In this document: piece after piece, positions 2 to 33,485 of the stretch
How the letters are laid out: the number at the start of each line of letters is the position of its first letter
Numbering within the stretch: the first letter of the stretch is position 1
Source of the DNA: Bacteroidota bacterium
Lineage (GTDB): Bacteria; Bacteroidota; Bacteroidia; 2-12-FULL-35-15
Direction of reading: 5' to 3'
Assembly (NCBI GenBank): GCA_025963715.1
Contig: JAOQAG010000048.1
Span: 5,553 to 69,552 of the forward strand
DNA length: 64,000 nucleotides
Made by a program: the position numbers and the translations under genes
Notes under the pieces: model-generated
Database searches by the model: none
What the model saw: only the letters and a program-made list of their open reading frames with translations
What the model was told of the DNA's origin: nothing

Positions 2-1615
2 TATGAAGATCCGCAGCATAATTTGTGGTTTGCAACGGCATACGGACTCAATAAATTTAATCCGAAGACCGAACATTTTGATCATTATTTTGAAAAGGAT
101 GGATTACCCAACGATTATGTGTATTGTGTAATGCCTGATAAACAGGGCTGTTTGTGGATGACCACGAACAAAGGCATTTCAAAATTTAATCCGGCTGTTA
201 AAAATACAGACGGTTCGGCATTCCGCAATTACGATATCAACGATGGTTTGCAGGGAATGGAACACAACCAGGGCGCTTTTTTCTGCAGCAAGAGCGGCGA
301 AATGTTTGTGGGCGGTGTGAACGGCTTCAATACATTTATTCCTGAAAAAATAACCGACAATAAAAATGTTCCGCCGGTACGCATTACTTCTTATAAACGC
401 TTTGGGAAAGAAGTGGAGCTGGATACGCTGATCTTCAATAAAACACATTTAGAGCTTTCGTGGTGGCAGAATTTCTTTTCCTTTGATTTTGTGGCGCTGG
501 ATTACCAGATGCCGGGAAAAAATAAATATTCGTACAAGCTGGAAGGTGTGGATGAAGATTGGTCACCGGCCGGATCGCAGCGTTACGCCAGCTATACCGA
601 GCTGCATGGTGGTGATTATGTGTTTCGTGTGCGTGCCGCTAACAGCGATGGCATCTGGAATGATGAAGGTGTAACGCTTTATATTCGGATCAATCCGCCG
701 TTCTGGCAAACAAAATGGTTTTATGCTTTGTGTGTGATCCTTATTGTTGCGGCTTTCTGGGGCTTTTTAAAATACAGGACCTCTTCGATCAAGCGCGAAA
801 ATAAAGTACTGGAAGAAAAAGTGGAAGAGCGTACCCAGGAGCTGGCGCAGAAAAACAAAGACATTACCAGCAGCATCCAGTATGCAAAACGGATTCAGCT
901 GGCCATTCTTCCACCGCTGGAACAGATCTTCAAATATTTTCCGCAATCGTTTTTGCTGTATAAGCCCAAAGATATTGTCAGTGGCGACTTTTACTGGTTT
1001 GGGATCAAAGACGGAAAAAAAATAATAGCAGTGGTGGATTGTACCGGTCACGGTGTACCGGGTGCATTTATGAGCATGATCGGGCATAACCTGTTGAACC
1101 AGATCATCAGTGAAAACGGTATTACAGAACCGGATCAGATCCTGGATGCTTTACACAAAGGCGTGCAGTCGGCGCTGAAACAAGGCACCAGCGTGGTGGA
1201 TACGAGCGATGGAATGGATGTGGCGCTGTGTACGATCAATGCCGACAATACGGAATTGCAGTATGCGGGTGCTTTCAGGCCATTGTTTATCATTAACGGA
1301 AACAAATTCGATAAAATAGAAGCGGATAAGATCCCGATCGGCGGTTCACAAACAGATGCGCAACGGAAATACAATTGTCATGCGATCAAAATAAATAAAG
1401 GCGATACGTTTTACATGACTTCCGATGGTTATGCCGATCAGTTTGGCGGCGACAAAGGAAAAAAATTCATGGTGAAGCGTTTTAATGAATTACTGTTATC
1501 CATCCAGGAGCTGCCAATGGAAAAACAGGGTGCTGTGCTGGAAGATGCATTTGAAAAATGGAAAGGCGGTTATCAGCAGGTGGATGATATTTTGGTTATG
1601 GGCATTCGTTTTTAA
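2..1615 (+). CDS. Sensor protein, 5'-partial: two-component-regulator propeller / Y_Y_Y repeats, one TM helix, C-terminal PP2C (SpoIIE/RsbU-type) serine phosphatase
   Basis: Open frame runs from the window edge. 'NLWFATAYGLNKFNP'-type propeller repeats, then a TM segment (FYALCVILIVAAFWGF), then PP2C motifs 'SGDFYWF' and 'DCTGHGVPGAFMSM'. Confidence 0.75.
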   Translation, partial: YEDPQHNLWFATAYGLNKFNPKTEHFDHYFEKDGLPNDYVYCVMPDKQGCLWMTTNKGISKFNPAVKNTDGSAFRNYDINDGLQGMEHNQGAFFCSKSGEMFVGGVNGFNTFIPEKITDNKNVPPVRITSYKRFGKEVELDTLIFNKTHLELSWWQNFFSFDFVALDYQMPGKNKYSYKLEGVDEDWSPAGSQRYASYTELHGGDYVFRVRAANSDGIWNDEGVTLYIRINPPFWQTKWFYALCVILIVAAFWGFLKYRTSSIKRENKVLEEKVEERTQELAQKNKDITSSIQYAKRIQLAILPPLEQIFKYFPQSFLLYKPKDIVSGDFYWFGIKDGKKIIAVVDCTGHGVPGAFMSMIGHNLLNQIISENGITEPDQILDALHKGVQSALKQGTSVVDTSDGMDVALCTINADNTELQYAGAFRPLFIINGNKFDKIEADKIPIGGSQTDAQRKYNCHAIKINKGDTFYMTSDGYADQFGGDKGKKFMVKRFNELLLSIQELPMEKQGAVLEDAFEKWKGGYQQVDDILVMGIRF

Positions 1616-2009
1616 AAAGAATAGTTCAAAGTTCAAAAGTTTAAAGTTCAAAGTTAGCTGTGTACGTGTAGGCGCTAGGCTCTGCCTAGTGACATTTAGT
1701 TTGTCACTAGGCAGAGCCTAGCGCCTACGATCACTCAATTCAAAGTTAGCTGTGTTTGCTACAAAAGAAATCAATTAATAAATTTAAAGATTTCAACGCT
1801 CAACTGTATTGTGTTTTCAGGCTTCGCCTTATGTGTTTCTTTGTACCTTATGTGATAGAAATTTTCGTACACAGCTTGCATGTAGTTTCGTTATCTGTAT
1901 TTTTTATTATCTTTGTTTTTGGATAAACAGAATACTAAATCAGAATACTAAAATTCACAAACTCCTGGTTTGTGCGTCATACTCTTACAAAACTTTTAAA
2001 CCAAAACTC

Positions 2010-2834
2010 ATGAAACGTATTTTTCTAGCTTCAGCCATCCTTATCACGGTCATGTCTGTAACATTTACATCGTGTAAAAAAACAGAACCGGATACGGAAA
2101 CCCAATCTGCAACGGATAATGATATCTGTGAAACAGAATTTACAAAATCTATGACTACTGTGAACAGCTTCGCGATCAAAGAAAACGGGATCAAAAGCAT
2201 GATGGACAGACAAAACCTTCGTTCCGGCGGCGGACCAACAATTACCGTTGACCCTGCGGATACACTGGATGGTTTTCCGGTAACGATGACCATTGATTAC
2301 GGAACAACCGGCATTATGGACAGTATTGACGGTAAATTCCGTAAAGGACAGGTGATTTGTGTGTTTTACAACAGCTGGCACATTGTTGGGGCTTCTGTTA
2401 AGGTTAACCTTGTTAATTACTCTGTGAACGGGATTACCTATGCCTGCGACAGTATGAGGATCACGCACAGTTCAACCAACGGATTTACACATCAAACCTT
2501 TAAAGGAAAATGTATGAATTCGGAGTGGAACCTACAATGGGAAGCCTTGCGTACTTACACGCAAACGGCCGGTGCAGGCGACCTGAATCCATTGAATGAC
2601 GTATTCAGCCTTACAGGAAATGCAAGCGGCGTTAACCGCGAAGGAAAATCGTATACGGTAAACATTACACAGCCGATCGTGAAAAGAAACTCCTGCAGCT
2701 GGATCGAATCGGGCCGTATGGACTTAACACCAGAGGGGCTGGCAGTACGTACGGTTGATTTTGGTACAGGAAATTGCGACAATAAAGCAACGCTGACGAT
2801 CAATGGCAACGTATTTACGTTTTCGATGAATTAA
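2010..2834 (+). CDS. Hypothetical lipoprotein
   Basis: Internal ATG at 2010 gives 'MKRIFLASAILITVMSVTFTSCKK', a signal peptide plus lipobox. The upstream part of the ORF lies in repeat sequence. Confidence 0.55.
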   Translation: MKRIFLASAILITVMSVTFTSCKKTEPDTETQSATDNDICETEFTKSMTTVNSFAIKENGIKSMMDRQNLRSGGGPTITVDPADTLDGFPVTMTIDYGTTGIMDSIDGKFRKGQVICVFYNSWHIVGASVKVNLVNYSVNGITYACDSMRITHSSTNGFTHQTFKGKCMNSEWNLQWEALRTYTQTAGAGDLNPLNDVFSLTGNASGVNREGKSYTVNITQPIVKRNSCSWIESGRMDLTPEGLAVRTVDFGTGNCDNKATLTINGNVFTFSMN

Positions 2835-2986
2835 TAGCGCTGAAACCGATTGTTTATCAGCGTTTTCCGGTGAAAAAGAATAAGTTTAAGAAAAATGCAA
2901 AATTCGCTTGTTTAATAAAACTTATTTCTATATTTGCTTAATTAATAATCAGAATAGTGAGCTTAATCGAATAAATTAGCGTTTTT

Positions 2987-3532
2987 ATGATGTTAGATAT
3001 TTACGATTTTTACGATAAAATGGAGCGTAATAATATTATGCTTTCTTTTAAGGGCGACATTACTTCTGAATTATTAACATCCATCCTGCAAATCATGGAA
3101 TCCAAACTGGATAATCTGCAGGAAGAGCCAAAGATCAAAAAGAAGGTTTATAATGTGTTGGTAGAGTGCCTGCAGAATTTATATCACCACATGGATGAGG
3201 TGGCGCCGGAACAAAATGACAAGATCCGCTCAGCGATCTTTATGATCGGAAAACTGGATAATCAATACAACATTATTACAGGAAATTATATCAAGAACGA
3301 AAACGTGGCTGGTTTGAAAAAACGCCTGGAAGATATAAACCTGCTTACAAAAGAAGAATTAAAGGAATATTACAAAGCAGTATTGAATAACGGCGAAATG
3401 TCGCTGAAAGGTGGCGGCGGATTAGGGATGATCGATATTGCACGTAAGACCGGTGAAAAATTAAATTTTAACTTTGCACCCGTAGACAATACATTTTCAT
3501 TTTTTACATTAAATATTAAAATTTCACAATAA
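2987..3532 (+). CDS. SiaB-like partner-switching kinase-like protein (DUF6272/GHKL-like)
   Basis: 181 aa with a glycine-rich 'GGGGLGMIDIARK' ATP-lid-like motif. It sits 15 bp upstream of a DUF1987 gene, matching SiaB-SiaC arrangements. Confidence 0.5.
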   Translation: MMLDIYDFYDKMERNNIMLSFKGDITSELLTSILQIMESKLDNLQEEPKIKKKVYNVLVECLQNLYHHMDEVAPEQNDKIRSAIFMIGKLDNQYNIITGNYIKNENVAGLKKRLEDINLLTKEELKEYYKAVLNNGEMSLKGGGGLGMIDIARKTGEKLNFNFAPVDNTFSFFTLNIKISQ

Positions 3533-3547
3533 AAAAATAAGCGTAGT

Positions 3548-3928
3548 ATGGAAACAATTTCAATTGAAGGAACACCAAAAACCCCGACCATTACTTTTAA
3601 CACAGGTAGTGGATTTTTAGAGATCAAAGGACGTTCAATACCTGAAAACTCAATTGAGTTTTATAAACCGTTGGTGGATTGGCTGGAAAAATATGCTGCA
3701 AAGCCTCAACCGACTACCAATGTAAATATTCAGTTAGAATATTTTAACACCAGCTCTTCTAAATGTATCCTGGATGTATTCAAAAAACTGGAAGCGATCA
3801 ACAAAGGCGGAAGCAAAGTAACCATTAACTGGCATTACGAAGAAGATGATGAAGATATGTTGGAAGCCGGAGAAGATTACCAGGCGATCATCAACGTACC
3901 TTTTAAAATGGTACAGGTAGAAGAATAA
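3548..3928 (+). CDS. DUF1987 (SiaC-like) protein
   Basis: 126 aa, 'ISIEGTPKTPTITFNTGSGFLEIKGRSIPENS...LEYFNTSSSKCI', an acidic C-terminus, and the size and architecture typical of SiaC/DUF1987. Confidence 0.6.
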   Translation: METISIEGTPKTPTITFNTGSGFLEIKGRSIPENSIEFYKPLVDWLEKYAAKPQPTTNVNIQLEYFNTSSSKCILDVFKKLEAINKGGSKVTINWHYEEDDEDMLEAGEDYQAIINVPFKMVQVEE

Positions 3929-3954
3929 GATCAGAAGCTTATTATCATATAAAA

Positions 3955-3986
3955 AAGAACGCATTCGTGAGAATGCGTTTTTTTGT
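3955..3986 (+). terminator. Rho-independent terminator
   Basis: Stem 'gaacgcattc gtga gaatgcgtt' followed by a T7 run, immediately after the DUF1987 stop. Confidence 0.7.
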
Positions 3987-4065
3987 TTAAGATTTTCCCC
4001 GTTCTGATAATTGTCTGAACCTATTTATATGGTAGGCAGATGATATTGATAAAGAGATTTTTTAG

Positions 4066-4183
4066 CCACAGATTCACAGATGAAAAAAACAATAAAAGAA
4101 TTTTCACAGATCATTTCAAATCGCTTTGCGATTTATGCATCTGTGAAATTTTAATCCAAATAAAAAATCTGTGAATCTGTGGC
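4066..4183. repeat. MITE-like element (~118 bp) with 16-bp terminal inverted repeats 'ccacagattcacagat'
   Basis: Left end 'gccacagattcacaga', right end 'tctgtgaatctgtggc'. The interior is the reverse complement of the second copy at 14101-14216. Confidence 0.8.
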
Positions 4184-4338
4184 AAAGATTTTGTTTTCTT
4201 TTGTTCCTTTTGTGGTTCAAATTACACGTTGGTATTCACAGTTTGCCTTATGTGTTTCTTTGTACCTTATGTGGTGAAAAAAACCTGCTGCTAAAAAATA
4301 AAAGAGTTTGATACAAACTTTCCGATAGTCATTTGATA

Positions 4339-4380
4339 AAAAAAAGAGTGCCTTCCGACACTCTTTTTTATTTTATAAAA
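4339..4380. terminator. Bidirectional terminator
   Basis: A-run, hairpin 'agagtg ccttccga cactct', then T-run. It lies downstream of the minus-strand ABC gene. Confidence 0.65.
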
Positions 4381-4388
4381 CGTTTTAT

Positions 4389-7300
4389 TTAATTCGCTTT
4401 TTTCCTTCTTCTGCCAAACAATCCGAAGATCCGTTCCAGCAGATTGATGAATTTTTTCAGTACATCAAAATACAATGTAATTGCCAGTAACAGCGACATT
4501 CCCCAGATCACCGAAATGTTTACCCAGAACGTGTCGTAATACGTGCCGAAGATCTTTTTACGCGGTGCAAAGAAATGCGCCCTGCCTAAATCCGAACTGG
4601 TAGGATCCTGGTATACCGGCTCAATTTTCTGAACATATTCGCCATTCAGGTCAAGAATGCGGTAAGGTGTGGTACGGTTAGTCACCAAATCGTGCAAACT
4701 TTCATTTTCGTAATCATCTTTGTCTTTCAAATATTGCTTGCGCGATACGCTGTCTTTTGTGAGATCGCTTACCTGTTTGTCTTTTTGTTCCGTTGCATTT
4801 TTAAAATTACGCAGGTAATTTTGTTTCAGGTTATCCAAACAAGTACGAACTTCATTGGCAACTGTCGGGCTGAAACGATCTACAGTAAGATCGGACATAC
4901 CGGTACAAATAATTTTGCCATTGCTTTTTACTTTCAATTCTTTTTCCAGTTCATTTTTGATCATCGTCAATGCTGCTGAAACTTCGGCACGGCTTTCCGG
5001 CTTTTTGTAATTGGCTTCGGCGCCTTCCAGTTTTTTGTACATTTCCGTCAGCCAGTAATCTTTTTTATACGTGGCAATGCTGATGGCTTTATCGAATTTG
5101 TATAAGTCCCTATTGAATTTATTATCCTTGAATTGTTTCACTGCCAATGCTTCAAACGCCCAGCGGGATGTCATGATCTCGCCGGAGAACGGAACATAGC
5201 TTTGTGATGTAATAGCAGGATTTAACTTATCGAATTTCACGATCACGCCGCTTAATAATAATTGCGGAATGATCAGAAATGGAATTAAAATGTAAATGGT
5301 TACTGCCGAGTTAAAGCTCGCCGAAATATTTAATCCCAGCATGTTTGCAAAGCAGGAAGTGGTAAACAGCACCAGCCAGTAGGATAAATTCATTCCGTGA
5401 ATTTCCAGCACGTAATTTCCAACGATGATGAACATAAATGTTTGGATTGCCGACAATACAAACATGATGATGATCTTGCTCCACAAATAACTTCCTTTAC
5501 TCAGGTTCAGGAACGACTCGCGTTTTTGAATTTTACGATCGCGGATAATTTCCTCGGCACTCACGGTAAGCCCGATGAACAAGGCAACTACAACGGACAT
5601 AAATAGATACGCCGGTAAATTTTCGTTTTCACGGAAAATGTATCCTACTTTATTGGAAAGGTCGGTGTTGTAAAATTTAATTAAGTACGACAGGATAAAA
5701 GCCAGCACCGGCGCTTCCAGCAGGTTGATGGATAAATATTGTTTGTTTGTTAATTTGGATAATACATCGCGTGTGATGAATACTTTGAACTGGTTAAATT
5801 TATTCGGGCGCTTGAACGTACTTTCCGGGATCTCGGTATAGTTGTCGGTCTCCTCGATTTTTTTCTCGATCTTATCTTTGTAAAAATTATTCCATTCGGA
5901 TGGAGACGTTTTTCTGTTCAGCGTTAAGTTCCCGTACTCATCCAGTACTTTCGATTCGATGATGTTGAATACCTGCTCCGGATTTACGTTACCGCACTCG
6001 ATACATTCGCTTTCGTTACTGTTGGCATGATTTACCACGGTTTTAAAATAGATCACCGAATCCACCGGGTTTCCGTAATAGATCGGGAAACCGCCCACAT
6101 CAAGGATCATCAGCTTATCAAACATTTTAAAAATGTCGGACGACGGCTGATGGATCACTACAAATACCAGCTTGCCTTTTAACGCAAGCTCTTTGAGCAA
6201 GTCCATGATGTTCTCCGAATCGCGGGAAGATAAACCGGAAGTTGGCTCATCCACAAACAAAACAGATGGTTCGCGGATCAGCTCCAATGCAATGTTCAGG
6301 CGTTTACGCTGTCCGCCGGAGATCGTTTTTTCCAGCGGGCTTCCTACTTTCAGGTCACGTGTCTCGATCAGGCCAATATCGGTAAGCACTTTCACCACCA
6401 TGTCGGAAATTTCTTTATCGCCTTTATTGCCGAAGCATAATTTTGCGTTGTAGAATAAATTCTGAAAAACGGTTAATTCCTCGATCAGCAAATCGTCCTG
6501 GGAAACCATCCCGATCACGCCTTCGATCTTATTTTTTTCCGTATGGATATTGATACCGTTAATTTTTACGGAACCGTTGCTTGGAACTTCGTTGCTGTTC
6601 AAAACGTTCAGCAAGGTGGATTTACCGGCACCGGAGCCGCCCATGATCCCGATCAGCTTGCCGGAATCTTCACTGAAATTAATATCGCGCAAGCCAAGCT
6701 TACCACCTTTGAATTTGTATTCGAGGTTTTGCACCACAAAGGATACTTTCGCTTTGGAAGTATCGCTCATGAACGTGCTGAGGATATCGCTGTAATAAAC
6801 CGGTTTTACTTTGGAGCTGCGCAGCGATGATCCCGGTGTGAGGATGTATACTTTACGCGGAATTAAAATTTGTCCGTTCAGCAACAGTTCGCTCTTACCA
6901 AAATAAAGCATGGCGTACATGTTCACGCTGTGGATCCAGAGCACGCGTGCCTGGCCGGTTACGCCTTCGGCATATAAATGTTTTGTTTCTTTAAAATCGT
7001 GTGTTGTTTTATTGTCGATCACCAGTACATTCGGTGAATCGGGGATGCTGGCTTCATTTGCCTGGATAAAGCTCATGCAGCGTTTGTACTCTGCATCTTC
7101 GATGTTAAATGTTTCGGCAACTGTAGTTACAAATTCCAATTCCTGTTCAGAAATTTCCGTATTGGAATTGATAAATTCAATTAAGCGGATGAGTACAACC
7201 ACTTTCTGAACCTGGGTAAGCTCGCTGTTGATCTGGGTACAGATCTTTAAAATTTTAACGGAATTGAGTGAGGTACGTTTGGCGGTACCGTCTTTCTTTT

Positions 7301-7484
7301 TGGTAAGCTGGTGATGTGCTTCCAGGAAATCATCAAAGATCGCGAGGTACTGATCTACTAATTCCTGGTTTAATTGCTGTTTTAAGAATGATTGTACGAT
7401 TAGCCTGCCGTTGTCATTAATTCCGTCGACCCGTGCAATGATCGCAAACATCTGCATCAGGGCTTTTAATATACGTTCACTCAT
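4389..7484 (-). CDS. Multidomain ABC half-transporter: TerB-like N-terminal domain, ABC ATPase, ABC-2 membrane domain, C-terminal extension with an extra TM helix
   Basis: Walker A 'GGSGAGKST', signature 'LSGGQRKRL', Walker B 'VLFVDEPTSG', then about 6 TM helices, in a 1031-aa protein. Confidence 0.8.
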   Translation of the reverse strand: MSERILKALMQMFAIIARVDGINDNGRLIVQSFLKQQLNQELVDQYLAIFDDFLEAHHQLTKKKDGTAKRTSLNSVKILKICTQINSELTQVQKVVVLIRLIEFINSNTEISEQELEFVTTVAETFNIEDAEYKRCMSFIQANEASIPDSPNVLVIDNKTTHDFKETKHLYAEGVTGQARVLWIHSVNMYAMLYFGKSELLLNGQILIPRKVYILTPGSSLRSSKVKPVYYSDILSTFMSDTSKAKVSFVVQNLEYKFKGGKLGLRDINFSEDSGKLIGIMGGSGAGKSTLLNVLNSNEVPSNGSVKINGINIHTEKNKIEGVIGMVSQDDLLIEELTVFQNLFYNAKLCFGNKGDKEISDMVVKVLTDIGLIETRDLKVGSPLEKTISGGQRKRLNIALELIREPSVLFVDEPTSGLSSRDSENIMDLLKELALKGKLVFVVIHQPSSDIFKMFDKLMILDVGGFPIYYGNPVDSVIYFKTVVNHANSNESECIECGNVNPEQVFNIIESKVLDEYGNLTLNRKTSPSEWNNFYKDKIEKKIEETDNYTEIPESTFKRPNKFNQFKVFITRDVLSKLTNKQYLSINLLEAPVLAFILSYLIKFYNTDLSNKVGYIFRENENLPAYLFMSVVVALFIGLTVSAEEIIRDRKIQKRESFLNLSKGSYLWSKIIIMFVLSAIQTFMFIIVGNYVLEIHGMNLSYWLVLFTTSCFANMLGLNISASFNSAVTIYILIPFLIIPQLLLSGVIVKFDKLNPAITSQSYVPFSGEIMTSRWAFEALAVKQFKDNKFNRDLYKFDKAISIATYKKDYWLTEMYKKLEGAEANYKKPESRAEVSAALTMIKNELEKELKVKSNGKIICTGMSDLTVDRFSPTVANEVRTCLDNLKQNYLRNFKNATEQKDKQVSDLTKDSVSRKQYLKDKDDYENESLHDLVTNRTTPYRILDLNGEYVQKIEPVYQDPTSSDLGRAHFFAPRKKIFGTYYDTFWVNISVIWGMSLLLAITLYFDVLKKFINLLERIFGLFGRRRKKAN

Positions 7485-7580: not shown

Positions 7581-8015
7581 TTATTTTTGCTGTTTGAAGC
7601 CGATTAATACTACTGCACGGCCGGAACCCTGCGCTGCACCATCTAATTTAGCTTCAATGATACAATCCAATGTGTTTACAATTTTAAAATCCCAGTACGG
7701 TGCATTTTTATAATCACGGTTACTGAATAATAAATTATGTTCTGAATCGTACACGGAAAACACCAGGTTACCATCTGTTAAACCGCTGCAGGCAGCAATG
7801 CGGTATAATGTTCCACCGTAAAGTGTGGTGTGAAATTCTGCCGTTTCATCTGCATTCATCAAGAGTGCACGGTATTGCTGTCCATCGGAAATAAACTGGT
7901 TTTCCAAATGTTTCGCACAGGAGTTGGCAACTGTGTCACTAATTTGAGCAGTAGAAGCATTTGCAATGATAAGTCCACAAATGATAATGCCCAATTTTAA
8001 AAATCCCTTTTTCAT
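7581..8015 (-). CDS. Hypothetical secreted protein
   Basis: N-terminal signal peptide 'MKKGFLKLGIIICGLIIANA'. Confidence 0.5.
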   Translation of the reverse strand: MKKGFLKLGIIICGLIIANASTAQISDTVANSCAKHLENQFISDGQQYRALLMNADETAEFHTTLYGGTLYRIAACSGLTDGNLVFSVYDSEHNLLFSNRDYKNAPYWDFKIVNTLDCIIEAKLDGAAQGSGRAVVLIGFKQQK

Positions 8016-8077: not shown

Positions 8078-8974
8078 TTATCCAACTACCTGGCTTCTGA
8101 TGGATTTGATTTTTAATGTGATCGATTCGATTTGTTCCGGTGTGATCTTTACTTCTGTTTTGCTGTTGATGGTTGTTACTTTTTTATCAGCATCAGTTGT
8201 TGGTTTTTCATATTTGTATTGAAATTCAACGCCGTCAAAAACGGTAGAAAGATCATTCAGATTATCAATAAACTCGGTATACTCAGGCTGACTGTAGTAT
8301 GGAGTTAATAATTTGATAAGACTTTGCAGCGATGATTTTTGTTCTGCAATGCGGTGTTTTACATCTTCGTTCGGTTTTGTTTTGTACACATTGGTAGCAA
8401 AATACAATGTTTCGATCCATCCGCCTGCCAATACCAATCCGCTGACATCGCTGCGGTCGTTGTTTTTCAGGTAAGCATCGCTGGAGCGGTAAGCTGTACC
8501 AACAAGGCCAAGCATGGAATCTTTGGTACCTAAGTTCTTTTGAAAACGTTCTAATAATTTTGTGTCGAATGCGCCGGAAACTCCTAATTCGTCTGCTAAT
8601 TTTTTAGCAGAGTTCAGATAACCGATCGCGTCCTGCGTTTGATCGTAAATAGTTACGTAACCTAAGTCTGCACCATAAATCCCAAGGTTTAACGCTTTGG
8701 AAAAATTAGTGGAATATTGTGAAGATTTACTGGCTGCGTTCAAAATATCTTTGCTGTACGGAGCGCCGCTATTTTTGATCAGGAATGCAGTCTGGATCGG
8801 TGACGGAATACTGAAAATCTCACCATTAACATTTAAAATTGTAGTCTGAGTGCTGTCTACAGGAGCAATTTCGTCCGGATCTTTTGTGGTTCCATTTCCA
8901 CAGCCTGAACTTAAAATGGCAGATGCGGATAATAATAATGCTGCTGCTTTTAACGTATTCGTTTTCAATCTCAT
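8078..8974 (-). CDS. Hypothetical lipoprotein
   Basis: Signal peptide plus lipobox 'LSSGCGNG'. Confidence 0.55.
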   Translation of the reverse strand: MRLKTNTLKAAALLLSASAILSSGCGNGTTKDPDEIAPVDSTQTTILNVNGEIFSIPSPIQTAFLIKNSGAPYSKDILNAASKSSQYSTNFSKALNLGIYGADLGYVTIYDQTQDAIGYLNSAKKLADELGVSGAFDTKLLERFQKNLGTKDSMLGLVGTAYRSSDAYLKNNDRSDVSGLVLAGGWIETLYFATNVYKTKPNEDVKHRIAEQKSSLQSLIKLLTPYYSQPEYTEFIDNLNDLSTVFDGVEFQYKYEKPTTDADKKVTTINSKTEVKITPEQIESITLKIKSIRSQVVG

Positions 8975-10689: not shown

Positions 10690-11871
10690 GTGGAGCAAGA
10701 GAAGGATTTTAAAATGATTGCCAAAACTATTTTTGGTTTGGAGGAAACGCTGTCGACCGAGCTATTGCGGCTGGGTGCAAAAAATGTGGAGATCCATAAC
10801 CGTGCGGTAAGCTTTGAAGGCGATACGGGCTTTATGTACAAAGCCAATTTGTGTTTGCGCACGGCATTGCGCATTCTTGTTCCGTTTGAAACGTTTAAAG
10901 TAACGGATGAAAAATCGCTGTATGCTTCCATGCAAAAAATCGATTGGGAAAAATACATGGATGTGACAGATACGCTGGCGATTGATACGGTGATCAATTC
11001 GGAATTGTTTACGCATTCACAATACATTTCGCAAAAATCAAAGGATGCTATTGTGGATCAGTTTCGTGCCAGGCATGGCGAGCGTCCGTCCGTAGATCTG
11101 GATAAACCAACCATTCGCATCAACATTCATATTTACAATGATACGTGCACGGTAGCGCTGGATAGCTCCGGAGAATCGCTGCACAAGCGTGGCTACCGCG
11201 ATAAAACCAATCTGGCACCGATCAACGAAGTGCTGGCTGCAGGTTTGGTATTGCTAAGCGGCTGGGACAAGCGTACCAATTTTATTGATCCGATGTGCGG
11301 TTCAGGAACAATTGTGATCGAAGCGGCATTGATCGCCAATAATATTCCGGCAGGTTATTTTCGTGAAGATTTCGGGTTTCAGCGCTGGCATAAATTTATG
11401 CCGTATAATGAGGAATTGTGGGACCTGATCTTTGATTCGGCGGTAAACAAAATTACAGATCATCAGCAAACCATTATCGGTGGTGAGCTTTCGAGCAACG
11501 TGGCAAAAAAAGCAAAAGAAAATGTGAAGCTGGCAAAGGTGGATGATGTGGTGGTGATCAAAAATGTGGACATGAAAGATTTTGAAGTGCCACCGGGAAG
11601 AGGCGTGGTTATTATCAATCCGCCGTATGGCGAACGGATGGTAAAAGATAATATTGATGAGCTTTATAAAATGATGGGGGATACATTCAAGAAAAATTTT
11701 TCAGGATACGATTGCTGGATCTTAAGTTCCAACCTGGATGCTTTGAAGAATGTAGGTTTGCGTCCGTCGAGGAAAATATCATTGTTCAACGGTCAGCTGG
11801 AATGTAAATTCATGAAATATGAAATGTACCAGGGGACGAAGAAGATTCATAAGTTGGAAAATAAGGAATAG
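10690..11871 (+). CDS. THUMP-domain class I SAM-dependent RNA methyltransferase (RlmL/COG0116-like)
   Basis: THUMP-like N-terminus, SAM-binding region 'DPMCGSGT', catalytic 'NPPYGER'. The start could instead be at 10714. Confidence 0.8.
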   Translation: MEQEKDFKMIAKTIFGLEETLSTELLRLGAKNVEIHNRAVSFEGDTGFMYKANLCLRTALRILVPFETFKVTDEKSLYASMQKIDWEKYMDVTDTLAIDTVINSELFTHSQYISQKSKDAIVDQFRARHGERPSVDLDKPTIRINIHIYNDTCTVALDSSGESLHKRGYRDKTNLAPINEVLAAGLVLLSGWDKRTNFIDPMCGSGTIVIEAALIANNIPAGYFREDFGFQRWHKFMPYNEELWDLIFDSAVNKITDHQQTIIGGELSSNVAKKAKENVKLAKVDDVVVIKNVDMKDFEVPPGRGVVIINPPYGERMVKDNIDELYKMMGDTFKKNFSGYDCWILSSNLDALKNVGLRPSRKISLFNGQLECKFMKYEMYQGTKKIHKLENKE

Positions 11872-12187
11872 TTTAAAGTTCAAGGTTTGAAAGTTTAAAG
11901 TTTGCTGTGTGGCTCCTGCGGAGCGGTTTTTACCACTAAGGCACTTAGGGCACTGAGAAAAAAAAAGAGAAAAAGAGATTTTGATGTGTGGATCGCTTAC
12001 GCGATTATTTTTTACCACGAAGCCGCAAAGAAAAATTGAAGCGTGTTTTTGTTTTTTTAATGTTTGGTCACAAACTGATACACATAATTCACACACAGAT
12101 TCGTTATTCGTTTAATTCGCTATTCGTTGTACACAGATTGGTATATTAGTATAAATTAGTATTTAGCAGATTCATAGAGTAGATTAT

Positions 12188-13156
12188 ATGAAAAAAATTG
12201 CCGTATTAACATCCGGAGGCGATTCGCCGGGAATGAATGCTTGTTTAAGAGCTGTTGTGCGAACTGCTGTTTATCATAAAATAGAGGTGATGGGCATCAT
12301 GCATGGTTACAATGGGATGATCAAGGATGAGTTTATAAAAATGGATGCAAAATCGGTGGCGAGTATTATTAACCGTGGCGGCACCATTTTAAAAACAGCG
12401 CGGAGCACCGAATTTATGACGACTGAAGGCCGCGATAAAGCATTGACGAATTTAAAAAAACACGGGATCGAAGGCGTGGTGATCATTGGCGGCGACGGTT
12501 CTTTTAAAGGCGCGTTGGAATTCAGTACTATGTGCGATATACCGTTTGTGGGCTGTCCGGGTACCATTGATAATGATTTGCAGGGAACTGATTTTACGAT
12601 CGGTTATGACACTGCGATCAACACGGTGGTGGAAGCGGTGGATAAAATCAGGGATACAGCAGAAAGTCACGATCGTTTATTTTTTGTGGAGGTGATGGGC
12701 CGCGATGCCGGATTAATTGCATTGCGTGCGGGAATTGGCGTGGGAGCAGAAAGTATTTTGATCCCGGAAACAAAAACTGATATTGATGATCTCGTTGTTC
12801 GTTTGAAGAATAAACGCAAGAGTAAAACTTCCAAAATAATTATTGTGGCGGAGGGCGATGAAGCGGGTGGCGCTTTTAAAATTGCGCAAGAAGTAAAAAA
12901 ACAATTACCGGAATACGATACACGTGTAACTATTTTAGGTCACATTCAGCGTGGCGGAAATCCAAGTGCGATGGATCGTGTAAATAGCAGCAGGATGGGA
13001 TTTGCGGCGGTGGAAGCATTAATGCAGGGCAAAAAGAACTGCATGGTGGGGATCATCAATAAAAAAATAGAATACACACCGTTTGAAAATGCAGTAAAAC
13101 ATAATCCGGAGCTGGATCCCGATCTGATGCGCATGGTAAATATTTTGTCGATGTAA
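12188..13156 (+). CDS. pfkA: ATP-dependent 6-phosphofructokinase
   Basis: 'KIAVLTSGGDSPGMNA', 'GGDGS', 'PGTIDND', and the 'RGG' substrate motif. Confidence 0.92.
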   Translation: MKKIAVLTSGGDSPGMNACLRAVVRTAVYHKIEVMGIMHGYNGMIKDEFIKMDAKSVASIINRGGTILKTARSTEFMTTEGRDKALTNLKKHGIEGVVIIGGDGSFKGALEFSTMCDIPFVGCPGTIDNDLQGTDFTIGYDTAINTVVEAVDKIRDTAESHDRLFFVEVMGRDAGLIALRAGIGVGAESILIPETKTDIDDLVVRLKNKRKSKTSKIIIVAEGDEAGGAFKIAQEVKKQLPEYDTRVTILGHIQRGGNPSAMDRVNSSRMGFAAVEALMQGKKNCMVGIINKKIEYTPFENAVKHNPELDPDLMRMVNILSM

Positions 13157-13205
13157 ATCAAAACATTTTCATTTATCGTATGTTATCAGGTAAATAAACT
13201 GCATC

Positions 13206-13865
13206 ATGAGGTTACATAAATTAAAAATCCCGTTTTTCTTTCTGCTGGTGTTCATTACCGTTTCCGGATGTACGTTCTTTCGTCCCAGCCCCAATAAATT
13301 ATTCCGGCGCGCTTTAAAAAACGAACCGTATGATGTGATCATTGTGCCGGGCGTTCCCTTCGATGGAAATACCTGGAGCGTAGCGATGAAGGGACGCGTG
13401 ATCTGGGCGGTGTACCTGATGAAGCAAGGCATTGCAAAAAATGTGATCTTCTCCGGCGGCTCTGTTTATTCGCCGTATGTGGAAGGTAAAATAATGGCTT
13501 TGTATGCCGAAAAAATGGGTGTGGATTCCAGCCATGTTTTTGTGGAAGATAAAGCACAACACAGCACCGAAAATATTTATTATTCGTACTGGATGGCGAA
13601 AAAATTAGGCTTTAGTAAAATTGCCGTTGCTTCCGATCCATTCCAGTCCAATTTACTGATGCGTTTTACCAAACGTCGGTTCAAACTGCCGATCGCGCAC
13701 ATTCCGTATGTGATCGATACGCTGGCGAAAATTGATGATGTGCACCCGGTCATTGATCCTTCTTCCGCTCATGTGGAGAATTTTAAATCCATCGAGGAAA
13801 CGCAAACCATGCGTCAGCGCCTTAGAGGCACGCGGGGGAAGAATATTAAGTATATTAAAGAATAA
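13206..13865 (+). CDS. YdcF/ElyC-family (DUF218) protein
   Basis: Signal peptide, then 'VIIVPG...VIFSGG', typical of the DUF218 fold. Confidence 0.65.
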   Translation: MRLHKLKIPFFFLLVFITVSGCTFFRPSPNKLFRRALKNEPYDVIIVPGVPFDGNTWSVAMKGRVIWAVYLMKQGIAKNVIFSGGSVYSPYVEGKIMALYAEKMGVDSSHVFVEDKAQHSTENIYYSYWMAKKLGFSKIAVASDPFQSNLLMRFTKRRFKLPIAHIPYVIDTLAKIDDVHPVIDPSSAHVENFKSIEETQTMRQRLRGTRGKNIKYIKE

Positions 13866-14100
13866 GGTACGGATAACGCCCGCCTGAACGATTCGGGCAG
13901 GAACAGGAACGAAAAACGAATCTGAGGATCTACTAAATACCAATTATTACTAATATACCAATCTGTGTATTTGCTGTGTACAAATGTTTCTTTGGATCGT
14001 TACCATCTTACGAAGCTGTCATTCCGGGCCTGACCCGGGATCTCATAAATGTTTGCAGCGTTAATTCTTCGGCCTGTCTTGCTGATGCTACTGATCTTTG

Positions 14101-14216
14101 CCACAGATTCACAGATTTTTTATTTGGATTAAAATTTCACAGATGCATAAATCGCAAAGCGATTTGGAAGTATCCGCGTGAATTTTTGATTTCCTTTTTA
14201 ATCTGTGAATCTGTGG
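14101..14216. repeat. Second copy of the MITE-like 'ccacagattcacagat' TIR element (inverted orientation)
   Basis: 'ccacagattcacagat' at 14101 and 'atctgtgaatctgtgg' at 14201-14216. The interior matches the reverse complement of 4082-4167. Confidence 0.8.
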
Positions 14217-14333
14217 CTTCATTTTCTAACGATGCGTTGTCCTTCGGTATTCGTTGTAACTTCCTTCCGGAAATTTTTCCACAGCTTGATTTATCAATCA
14301 ATTTAAAGCGCCATTTGTGTGTATATTTGCACA

Positions 14334-16979
14334 ATGAGTCGCACCACCCTTTTTGTTGATGTAATTTTACCTTTAGCGGTTCCGAATTTATATACCTATC
14401 GCGTTCCATTCGACTGGAACGAGTCGGTAATTGTCGGGCAGCGCGTGATCGTACAATTCGGAAAAGGAAAATTATATTCGGCGCTGGTGCGCAGAGTTCA
14501 TGAACAACCTCCCAAAATTTACGAAGCAAAATACATTGATTCCATTTTGGATGAGTATCCGATTGTGAACGAAACACAATTTGCGTTATGGGAATGGATC
14601 AGCCAGTATTATATGTGTACGATCGGTGAAGTGATGCAGGCGGCATTACCCGGCGGATTGCGGCTGGCAAGCGAAACAAAGATCATTCTTAATCCCTCGT
14701 TTAATAATCAATCGGAAACGGAGCGCCCGCAGATCTTGATTTCCGATAAGGAATATTTGATCATGGATGCGCTGGAGATCCGGCAGGTATTAAGCATCAG
14801 CGATGTGTCGGAAATCCTTGATCAGAAAACAGTATATCCTGTGATCAAAAACATGATCGAAAAAGGAATTGTACTGATCCAGGAAGAGCTGAAAGAAAAA
14901 TACAAACCGAAGATCGAAAGCTTCGTCCGCTTTACGGAGCATGCAGAGCAGGAGGAAAATTTAAAAACCATTTTTGATTCGCTGGAAAAAAAAGCATCCA
15001 AACAGCTGGATGTGGTAATGGCGTTTATCAAACTTTCCGGCAGGTATTCCAAACAGATCAACGAAGTAAAAAAATCGGAGATTGTAAAATTGGTGGAAGG
15101 CGCCGATGCAGCAATAAAAGGATTGGCTAAAAAAAATATTTTTGAAATATACGAACGTGAAGTGGGGCGATTTGCTGCATACACCGGCGAATCAAGGGAT
15201 ACGCATCTGAATGAAATTCAGCAGCAGGTTTTTGATTCGATTAATGCGCAGTTTTTTACCGGACAAAAAGAGCAAGCTGCTAAGGATGTTGTTTTATTAC
15301 ACGGTGTTACATCATCCGGTAAAACCGAAATTTACATCAAGCTGATCGAGCAGGCCATTGCGCAGGGAAAACAAGTGTTGTACCTGTTGCCGGAAATTGC
15401 GCTGACAACACAGATCATCAATCGCCTGCGAAAATATTTTGGCGATGTGGTGGGTGTGTATCATAGTAAGTTTAATGAAAATGAAAGAGTAGAAGTATGG
15501 AACAATGTATTAAAAAGTTCCAATGCGGAAGTTCCAATGCGGAAGTTGGATGAGCTAAATGCAGAAAAAAAAGTTCAAAGTTCAAAGTTCAAAGTTGACG
15601 AACTAAACGCAGAAAAAAATACAGGATCAAACACAGAAACTTTAAAGGTTGAACTTTCCAACTTTAAACTTGTTGTTGGTGCGCGTTCCGCATTGTTTTT
15701 GCCATTCAGTAATTTAGGATTGGTGATCGTGGATGAGGAACATGATTCGTCGTACAAACAATACGATCCGGCGCCGCGCTACAATGCCCGTGATGGCGCA
15801 ATTTACCTGGCGCATCTGCACAAAGCAAAAACATTATTGGGATCGGCAACGCCCAGCATCGAAAGTTATTTTAATGCGCTGGAAGGCAAATACGGTTTTG
15901 CCGAAATGACCAAGCGTTTTGGTGGAATCCAGATGCCGGAGATCTTAATTTCAGATGTAAAAGAAGCGACGAAAAGGAAACAGATGAAATCGCATTTTTC
16001 GCCGATGCTGCTCGATCATGTGACTGCTGCGCTGGAAAATAAAGAGCAGGTGATTTTATTTCAAAACCGCAGAGGATTTGCACCGCAGCTGGAATGCAAT
16101 ACCTGCGCATGGGTGCCGCAATGTGTGAATTGCGATGTGAGCTTAACGTATCACAAAGCAAGCAATCAGCTGCGTTGTCATTATTGCGGATATACTTCCA
16201 AACCACCTGTAAAATGTGCCGCCTGCGGCGATACAGAATTAAAAATGAAAGGTTTTGGTACGGAAAAAATAGAAGAAGAATTGTCGATCTTTTATCCTAA
16301 AGCAAAAATTATGCGGATGGATCTGGATACCACGCGCAGTAAATTTGCGCACCAGCATATCATCCAGGATTTTGAAGATGGTAACATCGATATTTTGGTG
16401 GGAACGCAAATGGTAACCAAAGGATTGGATTTTGATAACGTGAGTTTGGTCGGAATTTTAAATGCGGACGGGATGCTTAATTTTCCTGACTTCCGTGCAT
16501 ACGAGCGCAGTTACCAGCTGATGGCGCAGGTATCGGGCAGGGCAGGGCGAAAAAATAAACGGGGGAAAGTAATTATCCAAACACAAAATCCGGATCACAG
16601 CATTATTCAGGATGTGTGGAACAATAATTATTTATCCATGTATACCAATGAATTGCTCGACAGGCGGAATTTTAATTATCCGCCTTATTTCCGGATCATT
16701 GAGATCACGCTGATCCATCGCGATGTGAACATGGTGAATGAATCGGCAAAATATTTTGCCAATGAATTAAAACATCATTTCGGTAAACGTGTGCTGGGCC
16801 CCGAATTTCCTATTGTTGCACGCGTTCGTAATTTATACCATAAAAATATTTTATTGAAGATCGAGCGGGATGCTTCTGCCTTGCAGGCGAAAAAAATTGT
16901 AGCAGACCTGCTGGTAAAATTCAAAGTGAATCCGGATTTTAAATCGGTAAGAGTGCAAATGGATGTGGATCCAATGTAG
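14334..16979 (+). CDS. priA: Primosomal protein N' (PriA helicase) carrying an in-frame ~50-aa repeat-derived insertion
   Basis: Walker A 'GVTSSGKTE', 'DEEH' box, Cys-rich zinc-binding region 'CNTCAWVPQCVNCDVSLTYH...CHYCGY...CAACG'. The ORF opens with GTG at 14319, and the likely ATG is at 14334. Confidence 0.9.
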   Translation: MSRTTLFVDVILPLAVPNLYTYRVPFDWNESVIVGQRVIVQFGKGKLYSALVRRVHEQPPKIYEAKYIDSILDEYPIVNETQFALWEWISQYYMCTIGEVMQAALPGGLRLASETKIILNPSFNNQSETERPQILISDKEYLIMDALEIRQVLSISDVSEILDQKTVYPVIKNMIEKGIVLIQEELKEKYKPKIESFVRFTEHAEQEENLKTIFDSLEKKASKQLDVVMAFIKLSGRYSKQINEVKKSEIVKLVEGADAAIKGLAKKNIFEIYEREVGRFAAYTGESRDTHLNEIQQQVFDSINAQFFTGQKEQAAKDVVLLHGVTSSGKTEIYIKLIEQAIAQGKQVLYLLPEIALTTQIINRLRKYFGDVVGVYHSKFNENERVEVWNNVLKSSNAEVPMRKLDELNAEKKVQSSKFKVDELNAEKNTGSNTETLKVELSNFKLVVGARSALFLPFSNLGLVIVDEEHDSSYKQYDPAPRYNARDGAIYLAHLHKAKTLLGSATPSIESYFNALEGKYGFAEMTKRFGGIQMPEILISDVKEATKRKQMKSHFSPMLLDHVTAALENKEQVILFQNRRGFAPQLECNTCAWVPQCVNCDVSLTYHKASNQLRCHYCGYTSKPPVKCAACGDTELKMKGFGTEKIEEELSIFYPKAKIMRMDLDTTRSKFAHQHIIQDFEDGNIDILVGTQMVTKGLDFDNVSLVGILNADGMLNFPDFRAYERSYQLMAQVSGRAGRKNKRGKVIIQTQNPDHSIIQDVWNNNYLSMYTNELLDRRNFNYPPYFRIIEITLIHRDVNMVNESAKYFANELKHHFGKRVLGPEFPIVARVRNLYHKNILLKIERDASALQAKKIVADLLVKFKVNPDFKSVRVQMDVDPM
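15514..15672 (+). repeat. Repeat-derived in-frame insertion within priA (direct repeats 'gaagttccaatgcg' x2, 'gagctaaatgcagaaaaaaa' x2, 'aaagttcaaagttcaaagttcaaagtt')
   Basis: Sequence composition matches the intergenic 'aaagttcaaagtt' repeat family. It translates to 'SSNAEVPMRKLDELNAEKKVQSSKFKVDELNAEK...' between conserved helicase blocks. Confidence 0.7.
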
Positions 16980-22870: not shown

Positions 22871-22934
22871 GTAGGCGCCAGGCTCTGCCTAGTGACACTC
22901 TAAATTTTGTCACTAGGCAGAGCCTAGCGCCTAC
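22871..22934. repeat. ~62-bp palindromic element 'gtaggcgc(c/t)aggctctgcctagtgaca...tgtcactaggcagagcctagcgcctac'
   Basis: Near-perfect long hairpin. Other copies at 1668-1728 and 33423-33485. Confidence 0.85.
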
Positions 22935-33422: not shown

Positions 33423-33485
33423 GTAGTTGCCAGGCTCTGCCTGGTGACAAATATCGAATGTCACCAGGCAGAGCCTGGCGCCTGC
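33423..33485. repeat. Third copy of the ~62-bp palindromic element
   Basis: 'gttgccaggctctgcctggtgacaaatatcgaatgtcaccaggcagagcctggcgcctgc'. Confidence 0.8.

Follow-up and report, generated by a model that had tools for sequence, protein, structure and literature searches.

We analyzed a 64,000-nucleotide stretch of DNA from a Bacteroidota bacterium (GenBank assembly GCA_025963715.1, contig JAOQAG010000048.1, positions 5,553 to 69,552 of the forward strand), referred to below as the window, which begins with a sensor phosphatase gene, a lipoprotein gene, a kinase gene, and a gene for a DUF1987 protein. The only characterized DUF1987 system that we know of is SiaABCD of Pseudomonas aeruginosa (PA0172–PA0169), where SiaA is a PP2C phosphatase, SiaB is a kinase, SiaC is a Thr68 phosphoprotein, and SiaD is a diguanylate cyclase. 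In the published SiaABCD model, SiaC activates this adjacent diguanylate cyclase. Judged by sequence comparison, the module in the window is a genuine counterpart, in Bacteroidota, of the SiaA/SiaB/SiaC switch of Pseudomonas, and no cyclase gene lies beside it.

Organization of the locus

The module lies on the + strand and starts with the 3′ part of a siaA-like sensor phosphatase gene (positions 2–1615), which is open at the 5′ edge of the window and is represented by its C-terminal 537 amino acids (aa). It is followed by a lipoprotein gene (2010–2834, + strand, 274 aa), a siaB-family GHKL kinase gene (2987–3532, + strand, 181 aa), and a siaC-family gene encoding a STAS-like DUF1987 protein (3548–3928, + strand, 126 aa) that begins 15 bp past the siaB stop. 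The siaBC pair is ended by an intrinsic-terminator-like hairpin at 3951–3990, to which no strand is assigned. An initial annotation, made by reading the sequence without database searches, had listed these open reading frames and their domains, the 15-bp gap, and the terminator, and we found every one of them in place. Its assignment of the proteins to SiaA, SiaB, and SiaC also stands, as all three match the P. aeruginosa structures by sequence and SiaB matches by fold as well. The domain assignments rest on strong profile matches and are not due to chance.

The sensor fragment matches the Pfam families SpoIIE/PP2C (4.3e-18), Y_Y_Y (1.6e-17), and Reg_prop (1.4e-8), and a single transmembrane helix at aa 238–256 of the fragment lies between Y_Y_Y and the phosphatase. 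This is the membrane sensor with a Y_Y_Y/propeller region and a PP2C domain that had been read from the sequence initially, and its order is periplasmic propeller repeats and Y_Y_Y, transmembrane helix, cytoplasmic coiled coil, and PP2C. The sole PDB sequence match of the PP2C domain at E ≤ 0.001 is the PP2C domain of SiaA (6K4E, 5.9e-40). The metal-site residues of SiaA are D457, D474, G477, D600, G601, and D653 (PMC7647112), and the metal-site motifs GDFY, VDCTGHG, SDG, and DDI are kept in the window protein, which is a membrane PP2C homologous to SiaA with an intact metal-binding site. On the NCBIfam model prot_phos_SiaA, the fragment scores 218.8 bits over model positions 378–657 of 658 (the C-terminal 280 positions), and it falls short of the equivalog cutoff of 700, since its N-terminal sensor region is different and the gene is truncated at the window edge.

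The region 5′ of the window was inferred from two relatives, L002 and L004. Full-length orthologues in close relatives are 1099–1100 aa long, with an N-terminal signal or transmembrane segment, about 770 periplasmic residues, a transmembrane helix at about 796–814, and then the coiled coil and the PP2C domain. Close relatives also encode a second SiaA-like PP2C of 468 aa with about five transmembrane helices (175 bits on the SiaA model). The window begins inside the large sensor gene, and this small tandem PP2C is thus read from the relatives. There, one SiaC probably receives input from two different sensors.

The kinase and the phosphoprotein

The 181-aa protein matches Pfam DUF6272 (PF19788) at 7.6e-43, with 145.8 bits against a cutoff of 26.6 and 134 of 134 profile positions covered, and it matches the NCBIfam model NF038262 SiaB_fam_kinase with 170.5 bits (cutoff 85) over 177 of 177 positions. 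On the equivalog kinase_SiaB it scores 89.5 bits, under the cutoff of 225. Its sole match in the PDB at E ≤ 0.001 is SiaB itself (6KKO_A, 8e-14, residues 3–176). An AlphaFold2 (AF2) model of the protein, with a predicted local distance difference test (pLDDT) score of 78.9, has SiaB as its top Foldseek match (template-modeling scores of 0.78/0.82), followed by SpoIIAB, RsbW, UsfX, and the catalytic and ATP-binding (CA) domains of histidine kinases. Residue E60 of the window protein, in a VECLQN box, corresponds to the predicted catalytic E61 of the Pseudomonas protein. N64 is also kept, and both residues are conserved, together with the glycine lid GGGGLGMIDIARK, across 137 unique SiaB homologues. 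The 181-aa protein is a predicted SiaB-family GHKL-type Ser/Thr kinase and supplies the SiaB-type component of a SiaABCD module. The GHKL-like kinase first suspected from the glycine-rich lid is therefore borne out by Foldseek at the level of fold and by the DUF6272 match in Pfam. Two relatives carry additional kinase genes: the locus L065 has a second siaB-siaC pair at 12064–13557, in which the 366-aa kinase consists of two DUF6272 domains in tandem, and in L020 siaC is directly followed by one more SiaB-like gene, an orphan that lies on the opposite strand (4053–4631, − strand).

The 126-aa protein matches Pfam SiaC (PF09345, formerly DUF1987) at 1.1e-45 over positions 1–119 of 120, with 154.6 bits against a cutoff of 24.5, and its sole PDB match at E ≤ 0.001 is SiaC (6KKO_C/6K4F, 1.2e-22). 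On the NCBIfam SiaC equivalog it scores 102.3 bits, under the cutoff of 150. Thr68 of the window protein aligns with Thr68 of P. aeruginosa SiaC, and the NTSS site lies within the motif YFNTSSSK, so this is a DUF1987/SiaC protein with a phosphorylatable Thr68. Among 92 diverse representatives of the SiaC family, 87 have Thr or Ser at position 68, as expected from the conserved phosphorylatable residue on which the initial reading depended.

The SiaC family comprises 5134 clusters at 50% identity and includes fusions of DUF6272 to SiaC, tandem SiaC-SiaC proteins (several of about 255 aa), a HEAT-repeat-SiaC-SiaC protein, and TIR-SiaC proteins, which agrees with the published picture of SiaC as a regulatory module that is portable (PMC8457831). 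Fusion representatives are P0295, P0297, and P0245/P0276. The TIR-SiaC fusions raised the question of a link to anti-phage defence, which we rejected, as PADLOC gave no match for the PP2C, lipoprotein, SiaB, or SiaC proteins; the neighboring transporter gave generic ABC ATPase matches only. The siaC gene of the window is annotated as hypothetical in its source record, where the locus tags are JWP12_* and the SiaC protein has the accession MCW3086068.1. Several NCBI records call SiaC-family homologues “nuclear pore complex subunit,” which is evidently a misannotation propagating among metagenome-assembled genomes (MAGs) of Bacteroidetes.

The lipoprotein between sensor and kinase

The 274-aa product of the gene between sensor and kinase has a signal peptide and a lipobox with Cys22, followed by KK and acidic residues, so the lipoprotein gene proposed at this position is confirmed. 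The protein is rich in beta strands, has conserved cysteines, and matches no Pfam and no NCBIfam family. Its own family is small, with 158 proteins confined to the clade of the window, and its gene always adjoins the sensor gene. Invariant in this family are the lipobox Cys, the following Lys and acidic residues, and more cysteines, the last as expected of an extracytoplasmic protein. The lipoprotein cannot be a direct partner of the cytoplasmic SiaC. A role as an accessory of the sensor is suggested because its gene is placed beside the sensor gene and because DUF4154 and TPR lipoprotein genes flank the PP2C gene in other relatives. With low confidence, we propose that the lipoprotein modulates the periplasmic propeller domain or delivers its signal. 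The gap between the lipoprotein gene and siaB has a median of 147 bp in the relatives.

In three relatives (L054, L066, and L081, at about 11100–14400), siaB-siaC is followed by a TPR lipoprotein gene and a gene for a 595-aa PP2C, and in L054 a gene for a YfiR/HmsC-like DUF4154 protein precedes the TPR lipoprotein gene. By analogy, this arrangement recalls YfiBNR with a phosphatase in the place of the cyclase.

Conservation of the module in Bacteroidota

A search with the SiaB-like protein gave 4565 relatives at E ≤ 0.001, several of which NCBI already names “SiaB family protein kinase.” The best 120 are all 77–98% identical and all come from MAGs of Bacteroidota (Bacteroidia). For a close set we took one genome per GTDB species; at least 361 genomes had a relative, and the best 80 loci were analyzed together with L001 and L002. 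A distant set of 80 loci came from a metagenome scan anchored on the YFNTSSSK loop. Almost everywhere, siaB directly neighbors siaC: this holds for 82 of the 83 close loci and for 72 of the 79 from metagenomes. The gap between the two genes has a median of 13 bp in the close set, and the medians are 13–24 bp over 151 loci.

The typical order in the close set is a ZIP transporter gene (− strand), a methyltransferase gene (− strand), and then, all on the + strand, the genes for the small PP2C with multiple transmembrane helices, the large propeller PP2C, the lipoprotein, SiaB, and SiaC. Among the 56 close loci with at least 5 kb of upstream sequence, 36 encode a SiaA-like PP2C no more than 2 kb upstream and on the same strand, two tandem PP2C genes are present in 13, and the lipoprotein gene is present in 39. 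The co-conservation of the phosphatase with the siaBC pair, a prediction of the initial annotation, thus holds among close relatives but not in more distant Bacteroidota. In other subclades, siaBC follows genes that resemble, by eye, Era/Der GTPases or RecQ, and PP2C is absent within 10 kb. The genes downstream of siaC vary even at 98–99% SiaB identity, with a LytTR response regulator and a histidine kinase in L002 and an ABC cluster in the window.

In the distant set, a recurrent order is a THUMP RNA methyltransferase gene, siaB, and siaC on the + strand, and then an ABCG-like transporter gene and genes for 144-aa and 298-aa proteins on the − strand, as in the window. Apart from the loci described in the next section, most metagenomic loci have neither PP2C nor cyclase and, where named, come from Bacteroidales or “Bacteroidetes” MAGs. 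The layout without a cyclase prevails in hundreds of Bacteroidota genomes. The layout described initially is real, but it is less exceptional than had been implied, being the norm for a very large Bacteroidota clade. In the Bacteroidales synteny blocks of the second set, for instance in L148 (3973–4311, − strand), 112-aa proteins that look by eye like STAS-type anti-sigma antagonists recur near rpsA and an RNase Z gene.

The proteins of the module differ widely in how well they are conserved. In close relatives, the median identity to the window is 88% for SiaC, 83% for SiaB, 74% for the ABC transporter, 60% for the PP2C, and 47% for the lipoprotein; the close set was picked by SiaB similarity, and SiaB conservation is therefore inflated there. 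In the distant sample, which was picked by way of an 8-residue SiaC motif and so carries a slight SiaC bias only, the medians are 72% for SiaC, 43% for SiaB, 47% for the ABC transporter, and 46% for the THUMP methyltransferase. Across 142 unique Bacteroidota sequences, 60 of the 126 SiaC positions are at least 95% conserved, and the corresponding figure for SiaB is 27 of 181. Among the conserved SiaC positions are those of the phospho-loop and of the acidic helix alpha3, EEDDEDMLEAGEDY. That SiaC is conserved far beyond its kinase suggests an additional conserved partner, which would be encoded in trans.

Cyclases near siaBC

We searched the window in six frames, together with the 82 related loci of the close set (about 1.3 Mb in total), for cyclases. 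No match to E. coli DgcC was found by phmmer at E ≤ 10 in the window or the 82 loci, a SiaD-like GGDEF query gave none at E ≤ 1 in the window, and SiaD-like GGDEF and class III cyclase domain queries matched nothing in the window or the 82 loci. The motif GG[DE]EF is likewise absent from both. The statement in the initial annotation that no GGDEF gene is present thus extends from the window to these relatives, and roughly 70 Bacteroidales-type metagenomic loci also contain neither a GGDEF nor a class III cyclase. No siaD is co-transcribed with the module, as siaC is ended by the terminator and the next gene, for an ABCG-like transporter (4389–7484, − strand), is convergent. Over the whole 64 kb, Rfam at gathering thresholds gave zero families, cyclic di-GMP riboswitches included. 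The general view that Bacteroidota lack cyclic di-GMP signaling rests on a 2005 census, in which the four Bacteroidetes genomes available at the time had neither diguanylate nor adenylate cyclases.

Some SiaC relatives do have a cyclase beside them. In three metagenomic loci (L084–L086), genes for a propeller-PP2C, SiaB, and SiaC are followed 19 bp on by a 250-aa GGDEF gene, whose product has diguan_SiaD as its best NCBIfam match (188 bits, 22–252 of 252); the SiaC sequence cluster of these loci bears the label Candidatus Thermochlorobacter aerophilum. A Leptospiraceae metagenome contig (L097, 2153–12534) encodes a 1776-aa Ser/Thr-kinase/AAA/TPR/GAF/PP2C protein, SiaB, SiaC, a GAF-class III cyclase, and an 817-aa protein without a known family, which suggests a SiaC-type switch tied to a cyclic AMP- or cyclic GMP-type cyclase instead of GGDEF. 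A further candidate output class is a Hanks-type Ser/Thr kinase encoded directly after siaC in L088 (10389–11582), which is 397 aa long with a 120-aa N-terminal region of no known type. In our sample, the cyclase-linked versions lie outside Bacteroidia, and the cyclase-less form is the rule inside.

Other features of the window

The terminator at 3951–3990 reads AAAAAAG AACGCATTC gtga GAATGCGTT TTTTTTGTTT and has a GC-rich 9-bp stem and a GTGA loop; lying between an A-run and a T-run, it could potentially be used in both directions. The −7 promoter consensus of Bacteroidota is TAnnTTTG. A candidate match, TATATTTG, is found at 2929–2936 on the + strand, about 50 bp 5′ of the siaB start, and siaBC may possibly have its own promoter there, as inferred from this motif. 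The fuller pattern TTTG-N17-23-TAnnTTTG is not enriched in the window and has no instance 5′ of the module, where the single TATATTTG before siaB is found.

The PP2C and lipoprotein genes are separated by a stretch with a perfect 27-bp inverted repeat, GTAGGCGCTAGGCTCTGCCTAGTGACA, that has a 7-nt loop (1668–1728) and recurs, nearly identical, at two more intergenic sites (22874–22931 and about 33460–33482); it looks like a repetitive extragenic palindromic (REP)-like element. A 49-nt direct repeat at 1813–1861 and 4232–4280, 84% identical with a 29-nt exact core GCCTTATGTGTTTCTTTGTACCTTATGTG, brackets the lipoprotein-siaB-siaC block and has no other copy in the window. Among 170 fetched loci it was found in L001 only, which is from the same sample, and it may be an intergenic repeat or the trace of a rearrangement. 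The window also contains a complete four-domain GldM gene of gliding motility and type IX secretion (17357–18922, − strand), and the remainder is ordinary chromosomal housekeeping with, by eye, DnaK, DnaJ, MurA, thymidylate synthase, and PriA.

Discussion

We consider it fairly probable that the window encodes a SiaABC-type Thr switch whose SiaC acts on a target in trans, most likely something other than a diguanylate cyclase. In the mechanism that we propose, the GHKL kinase SiaB would phosphorylate the STAS-like SiaC on Thr68, and the membrane PP2C sensor would strip this phosphate when its propeller/Y_Y_Y region receives an envelope or glycan-type signal. The lipoprotein would probably act outside the cytoplasm as an accessory of the sensor, and in close relatives the second SiaA-like PP2C encoded upstream, with its multiple transmembrane helices, may also dephosphorylate SiaC. 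Unphosphorylated SiaC would then bind and regulate a target that is encoded elsewhere and highly conserved in Bacteroidota. We place the target in trans because the genes that flank the module differ even between near-identical relatives, and we expect it to be conserved because SiaC is far more conserved than SiaB or the neighboring genes. More tentatively, SiaABC may be uncoupled from cyclic-nucleotide synthesis in Bacteroidota. SiaC, which ranks among the best-conserved small proteins of these loci, would then serve as an adaptor under the control of phosphorylation, and its conserved target in trans would not be a cyclase. The recurrent neighbors, namely the TerB-like ABCG transporter cluster, the THUMP rRNA methyltransferase, and the GTPases that look by eye like Era/Der, are no more than leads to this target.

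Several observations weigh against this proposal. No PP2C lies within 10 kb of siaBC in 16 of the 56 close relatives, and in almost no Bacteroidales-type locus is PP2C found beside the pair, so the link to the phosphatase is not universal. A fold search with the 274-aa lipoprotein gave no specific match, and the role given to it here is a guess. The cyclase search covers the 64-kb window and the related loci, and a cyclase may be encoded elsewhere in the genome. The strong conservation of SiaC could come in part from contacts with several phosphatases and the kinase, and not from the output.

A cyclase in trans is one alternative: as in Pseudomonas, the switch would still control a SiaD-like GGDEF or class III cyclase whose gene has moved elsewhere in the genome. 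In its favor, a cyclase gene directly follows siaC outside the clade (GGDEF in Ca. Thermochlorobacter, class III in Leptospiraceae), and the phospho-loop residues of SiaC that contact SiaD, namely Y65, N67, T68, and S69, are identical in the window protein. It is nonetheless unlikely, as no cyclase was found in the 64-kb window, the 82 close loci, or the roughly 70 Bacteroidales-type loci, and the 2005 census of four Bacteroidetes genomes found no diguanylate or adenylate cyclases. The window SiaC also differs from P. aeruginosa SiaC at 9 of 14 SiaD-contact positions, but this is weak evidence, and we rejected it as an argument against a cyclase since several of these positions are also changed in the Thermochlorobacter SiaC, which is linked to a cyclase. 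The output could instead be the convergent ABCG-like transporter, a 1031-aa protein with a weak TerB-like N terminus, together with its two small partners, a 144-aa secreted protein (7581–8015, − strand) and a 298-aa lipoprotein (8078–8974, − strand), neither with a known family; SiaC would then gate transport through the cytoplasmic N-terminal domain. The transporter gene is the next gene after siaC, and convergent, in 21 of 48 evaluable distant loci, it lies within three genes in 26 of these 48 at only about 47% identity, and 18 of 50 close relatives have it downstream at a distance of up to 10 kb; the median siaC-transporter gap is 67 bp. However, convergent genes are not co-transcribed, the surrounding genes (S1, RNase Z, GuaA, CtpA, and the THUMP methyltransferase) indicate general housekeeping synteny, many relatives have unrelated genes between siaC and the transporter gene, and the TerB match is under the Pfam threshold. 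A reciprocal look-up with the 144-aa partner found the cluster without siaBC within 10 kb in three genomes (L168–L170), and we therefore downgraded the transporter to a minor rival that we regard as quite unlikely.

It is also conceivable that the kinase is the effector, with SiaB sequestering a regulator, as RsbW and SpoIIAB do with a sigma factor, and unphosphorylated SiaC setting the regulator free. The SiaB model is similar to SpoIIAB, RsbW, and UsfX, which are anti-sigma kinases, and SiaC structures have been described as STAS-like, resembling an anti-sigma-factor antagonist (PMC7647112, PMC8457831). The pattern of conservation, with SiaB below SiaC both in median identity in the distant sample (43% vs 72%) and in the number of positions conserved at 95% or more (27 vs 60), is the opposite of what an effector kinase would lead us to expect. 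In addition, SiaB of P. aeruginosa failed to bind the output protein, and no sigma-factor gene is consistently adjacent to siaBC, which makes this explanation very unlikely. Least probable of all, and highly improbable in our view, is that the PP2C sensor and the lipoprotein form an independent system that lies beside siaBC by chance, the SiaC phosphatase being elsewhere or lacking. The 16 close relatives and most distant loci that have siaBC without PP2C within 10 kb, and the promoter that siaBC may have of its own, speak for such independence. The phosphatase domain is, however, specifically SiaA-like (SiaA-PP2C is its sole PDB match, and it scores 219 bits on the SiaA model), 36 of 56 relatives have its gene no more than 2 kb away on the strand of siaBC, and a like sensor heads a complete siaABCD-like operon in Ca. 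Thermochlorobacter.

Should a non-cyclase target of SiaC in trans be borne out, DUF1987 proteins would gain a new class of output, and Bacteroidota, which are thought to rely on hybrid two-component systems and extracytoplasmic function (ECF) systems, would have an envelope-to-cytoplasm signaling route that had gone unrecognized. We found no literature on DUF6272 or on SiaB and SiaC in Bacteroidota. The proteins are already named at the level of family by NCBI, and the locus is not unique; its value is the question of the output more than a new kind of system. Hundreds of loci keep the phosphatase-kinase-phosphoprotein core with no cyclase adjacent and with a constraint on SiaC much above that on its kinase, which sharpens the question to the binding partner of unphosphorylated SiaC in Bacteroidota. 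The answer would define a new switch output and would also give a function to propeller/Y_Y_Y sensors with a phosphatase output.

Relation to known systems

The partner switches RsbU/RsbV/RsbW and SpoIIE/SpoIIAA/SpoIIAB of Firmicutes likewise combine a phosphatase of the PP2C type, a Ser/Thr kinase of the GHKL type, and, as phospho-antagonist, a small STAS-like protein. The window module shares this logic, and its SiaB model aligns with SpoIIAB and RsbW at the level of fold only. It differs in that its proteins match Pfam DUF6272 and SiaC instead of HATPase_c_2 and STAS, and in that the output of Sia systems is carried by the phosphoprotein, not the kinase. With the STAS and HATPase families of Pfam unmatched and a sigma-factor gene not consistently near, the module is not a sigma-factor partner switch of the Rsb/SpoIIA type.

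The sensor half of the module resembles other systems. Hybrid two-component sensors of Bacteroides also have periplasmic Reg_prop repeats and Y_Y_Y followed by one transmembrane helix, but their output consists of histidine kinase, receiver, and AraC domains, whereas that of the window protein is PP2C. YfiBNR consists of the outer-membrane lipoprotein YfiB, the periplasmic YfiR, and the inner-membrane cyclase YfiN. Its likeness to the window concerns the accessory lipoprotein only, with a gene for an extracytoplasmic lipoprotein beside that for a membrane signaling enzyme, and with no similarity to YfiB or YfiR detectable in the window lipoprotein, the arrangement is alike without homology.

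The operon of Ca. Thermochlorobacter aerophilum has the same parts as the window, namely a Reg_prop/Y_Y_Y sensor with a transmembrane helix and a SiaA-like PP2C, a SiaB kinase, and a SiaC with YFNTSSSK. Unlike the window, it retains a gene for a SiaD-like GGDEF protein 19 bp past siaC, it lacks the lipoprotein gene, and its SiaC belongs to another subgroup, near P0380 (41% identical to the window SiaC). Compared with SiaABCD itself, the window lacks SiaD or another cyclase, its sensor has an N terminus of about 770 aa with a periplasmic double propeller and Y_Y_Y that is unlike that of Pseudomonas SiaA, and a lipoprotein gene stands between siaA and siaB. A second tandem SiaA-like PP2C is present in its close relatives, and the SiaC contacts with the SiaD stalk on alpha2 and alpha3 are changed (D79K, R103D, L107A, and D114I). 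Shared with SiaABCD are the order of phosphatase, kinase, and phosphoprotein, the PP2C metal site, the E/N box and glycine lid of the kinase, and the NTSS loop with Thr68. The locus fails the SiaD feature and the NCBIfam equivalog thresholds, which SiaA, SiaB, and SiaC of the window all fall below, and by curated thresholds it belongs to the SiaB and SiaC families.

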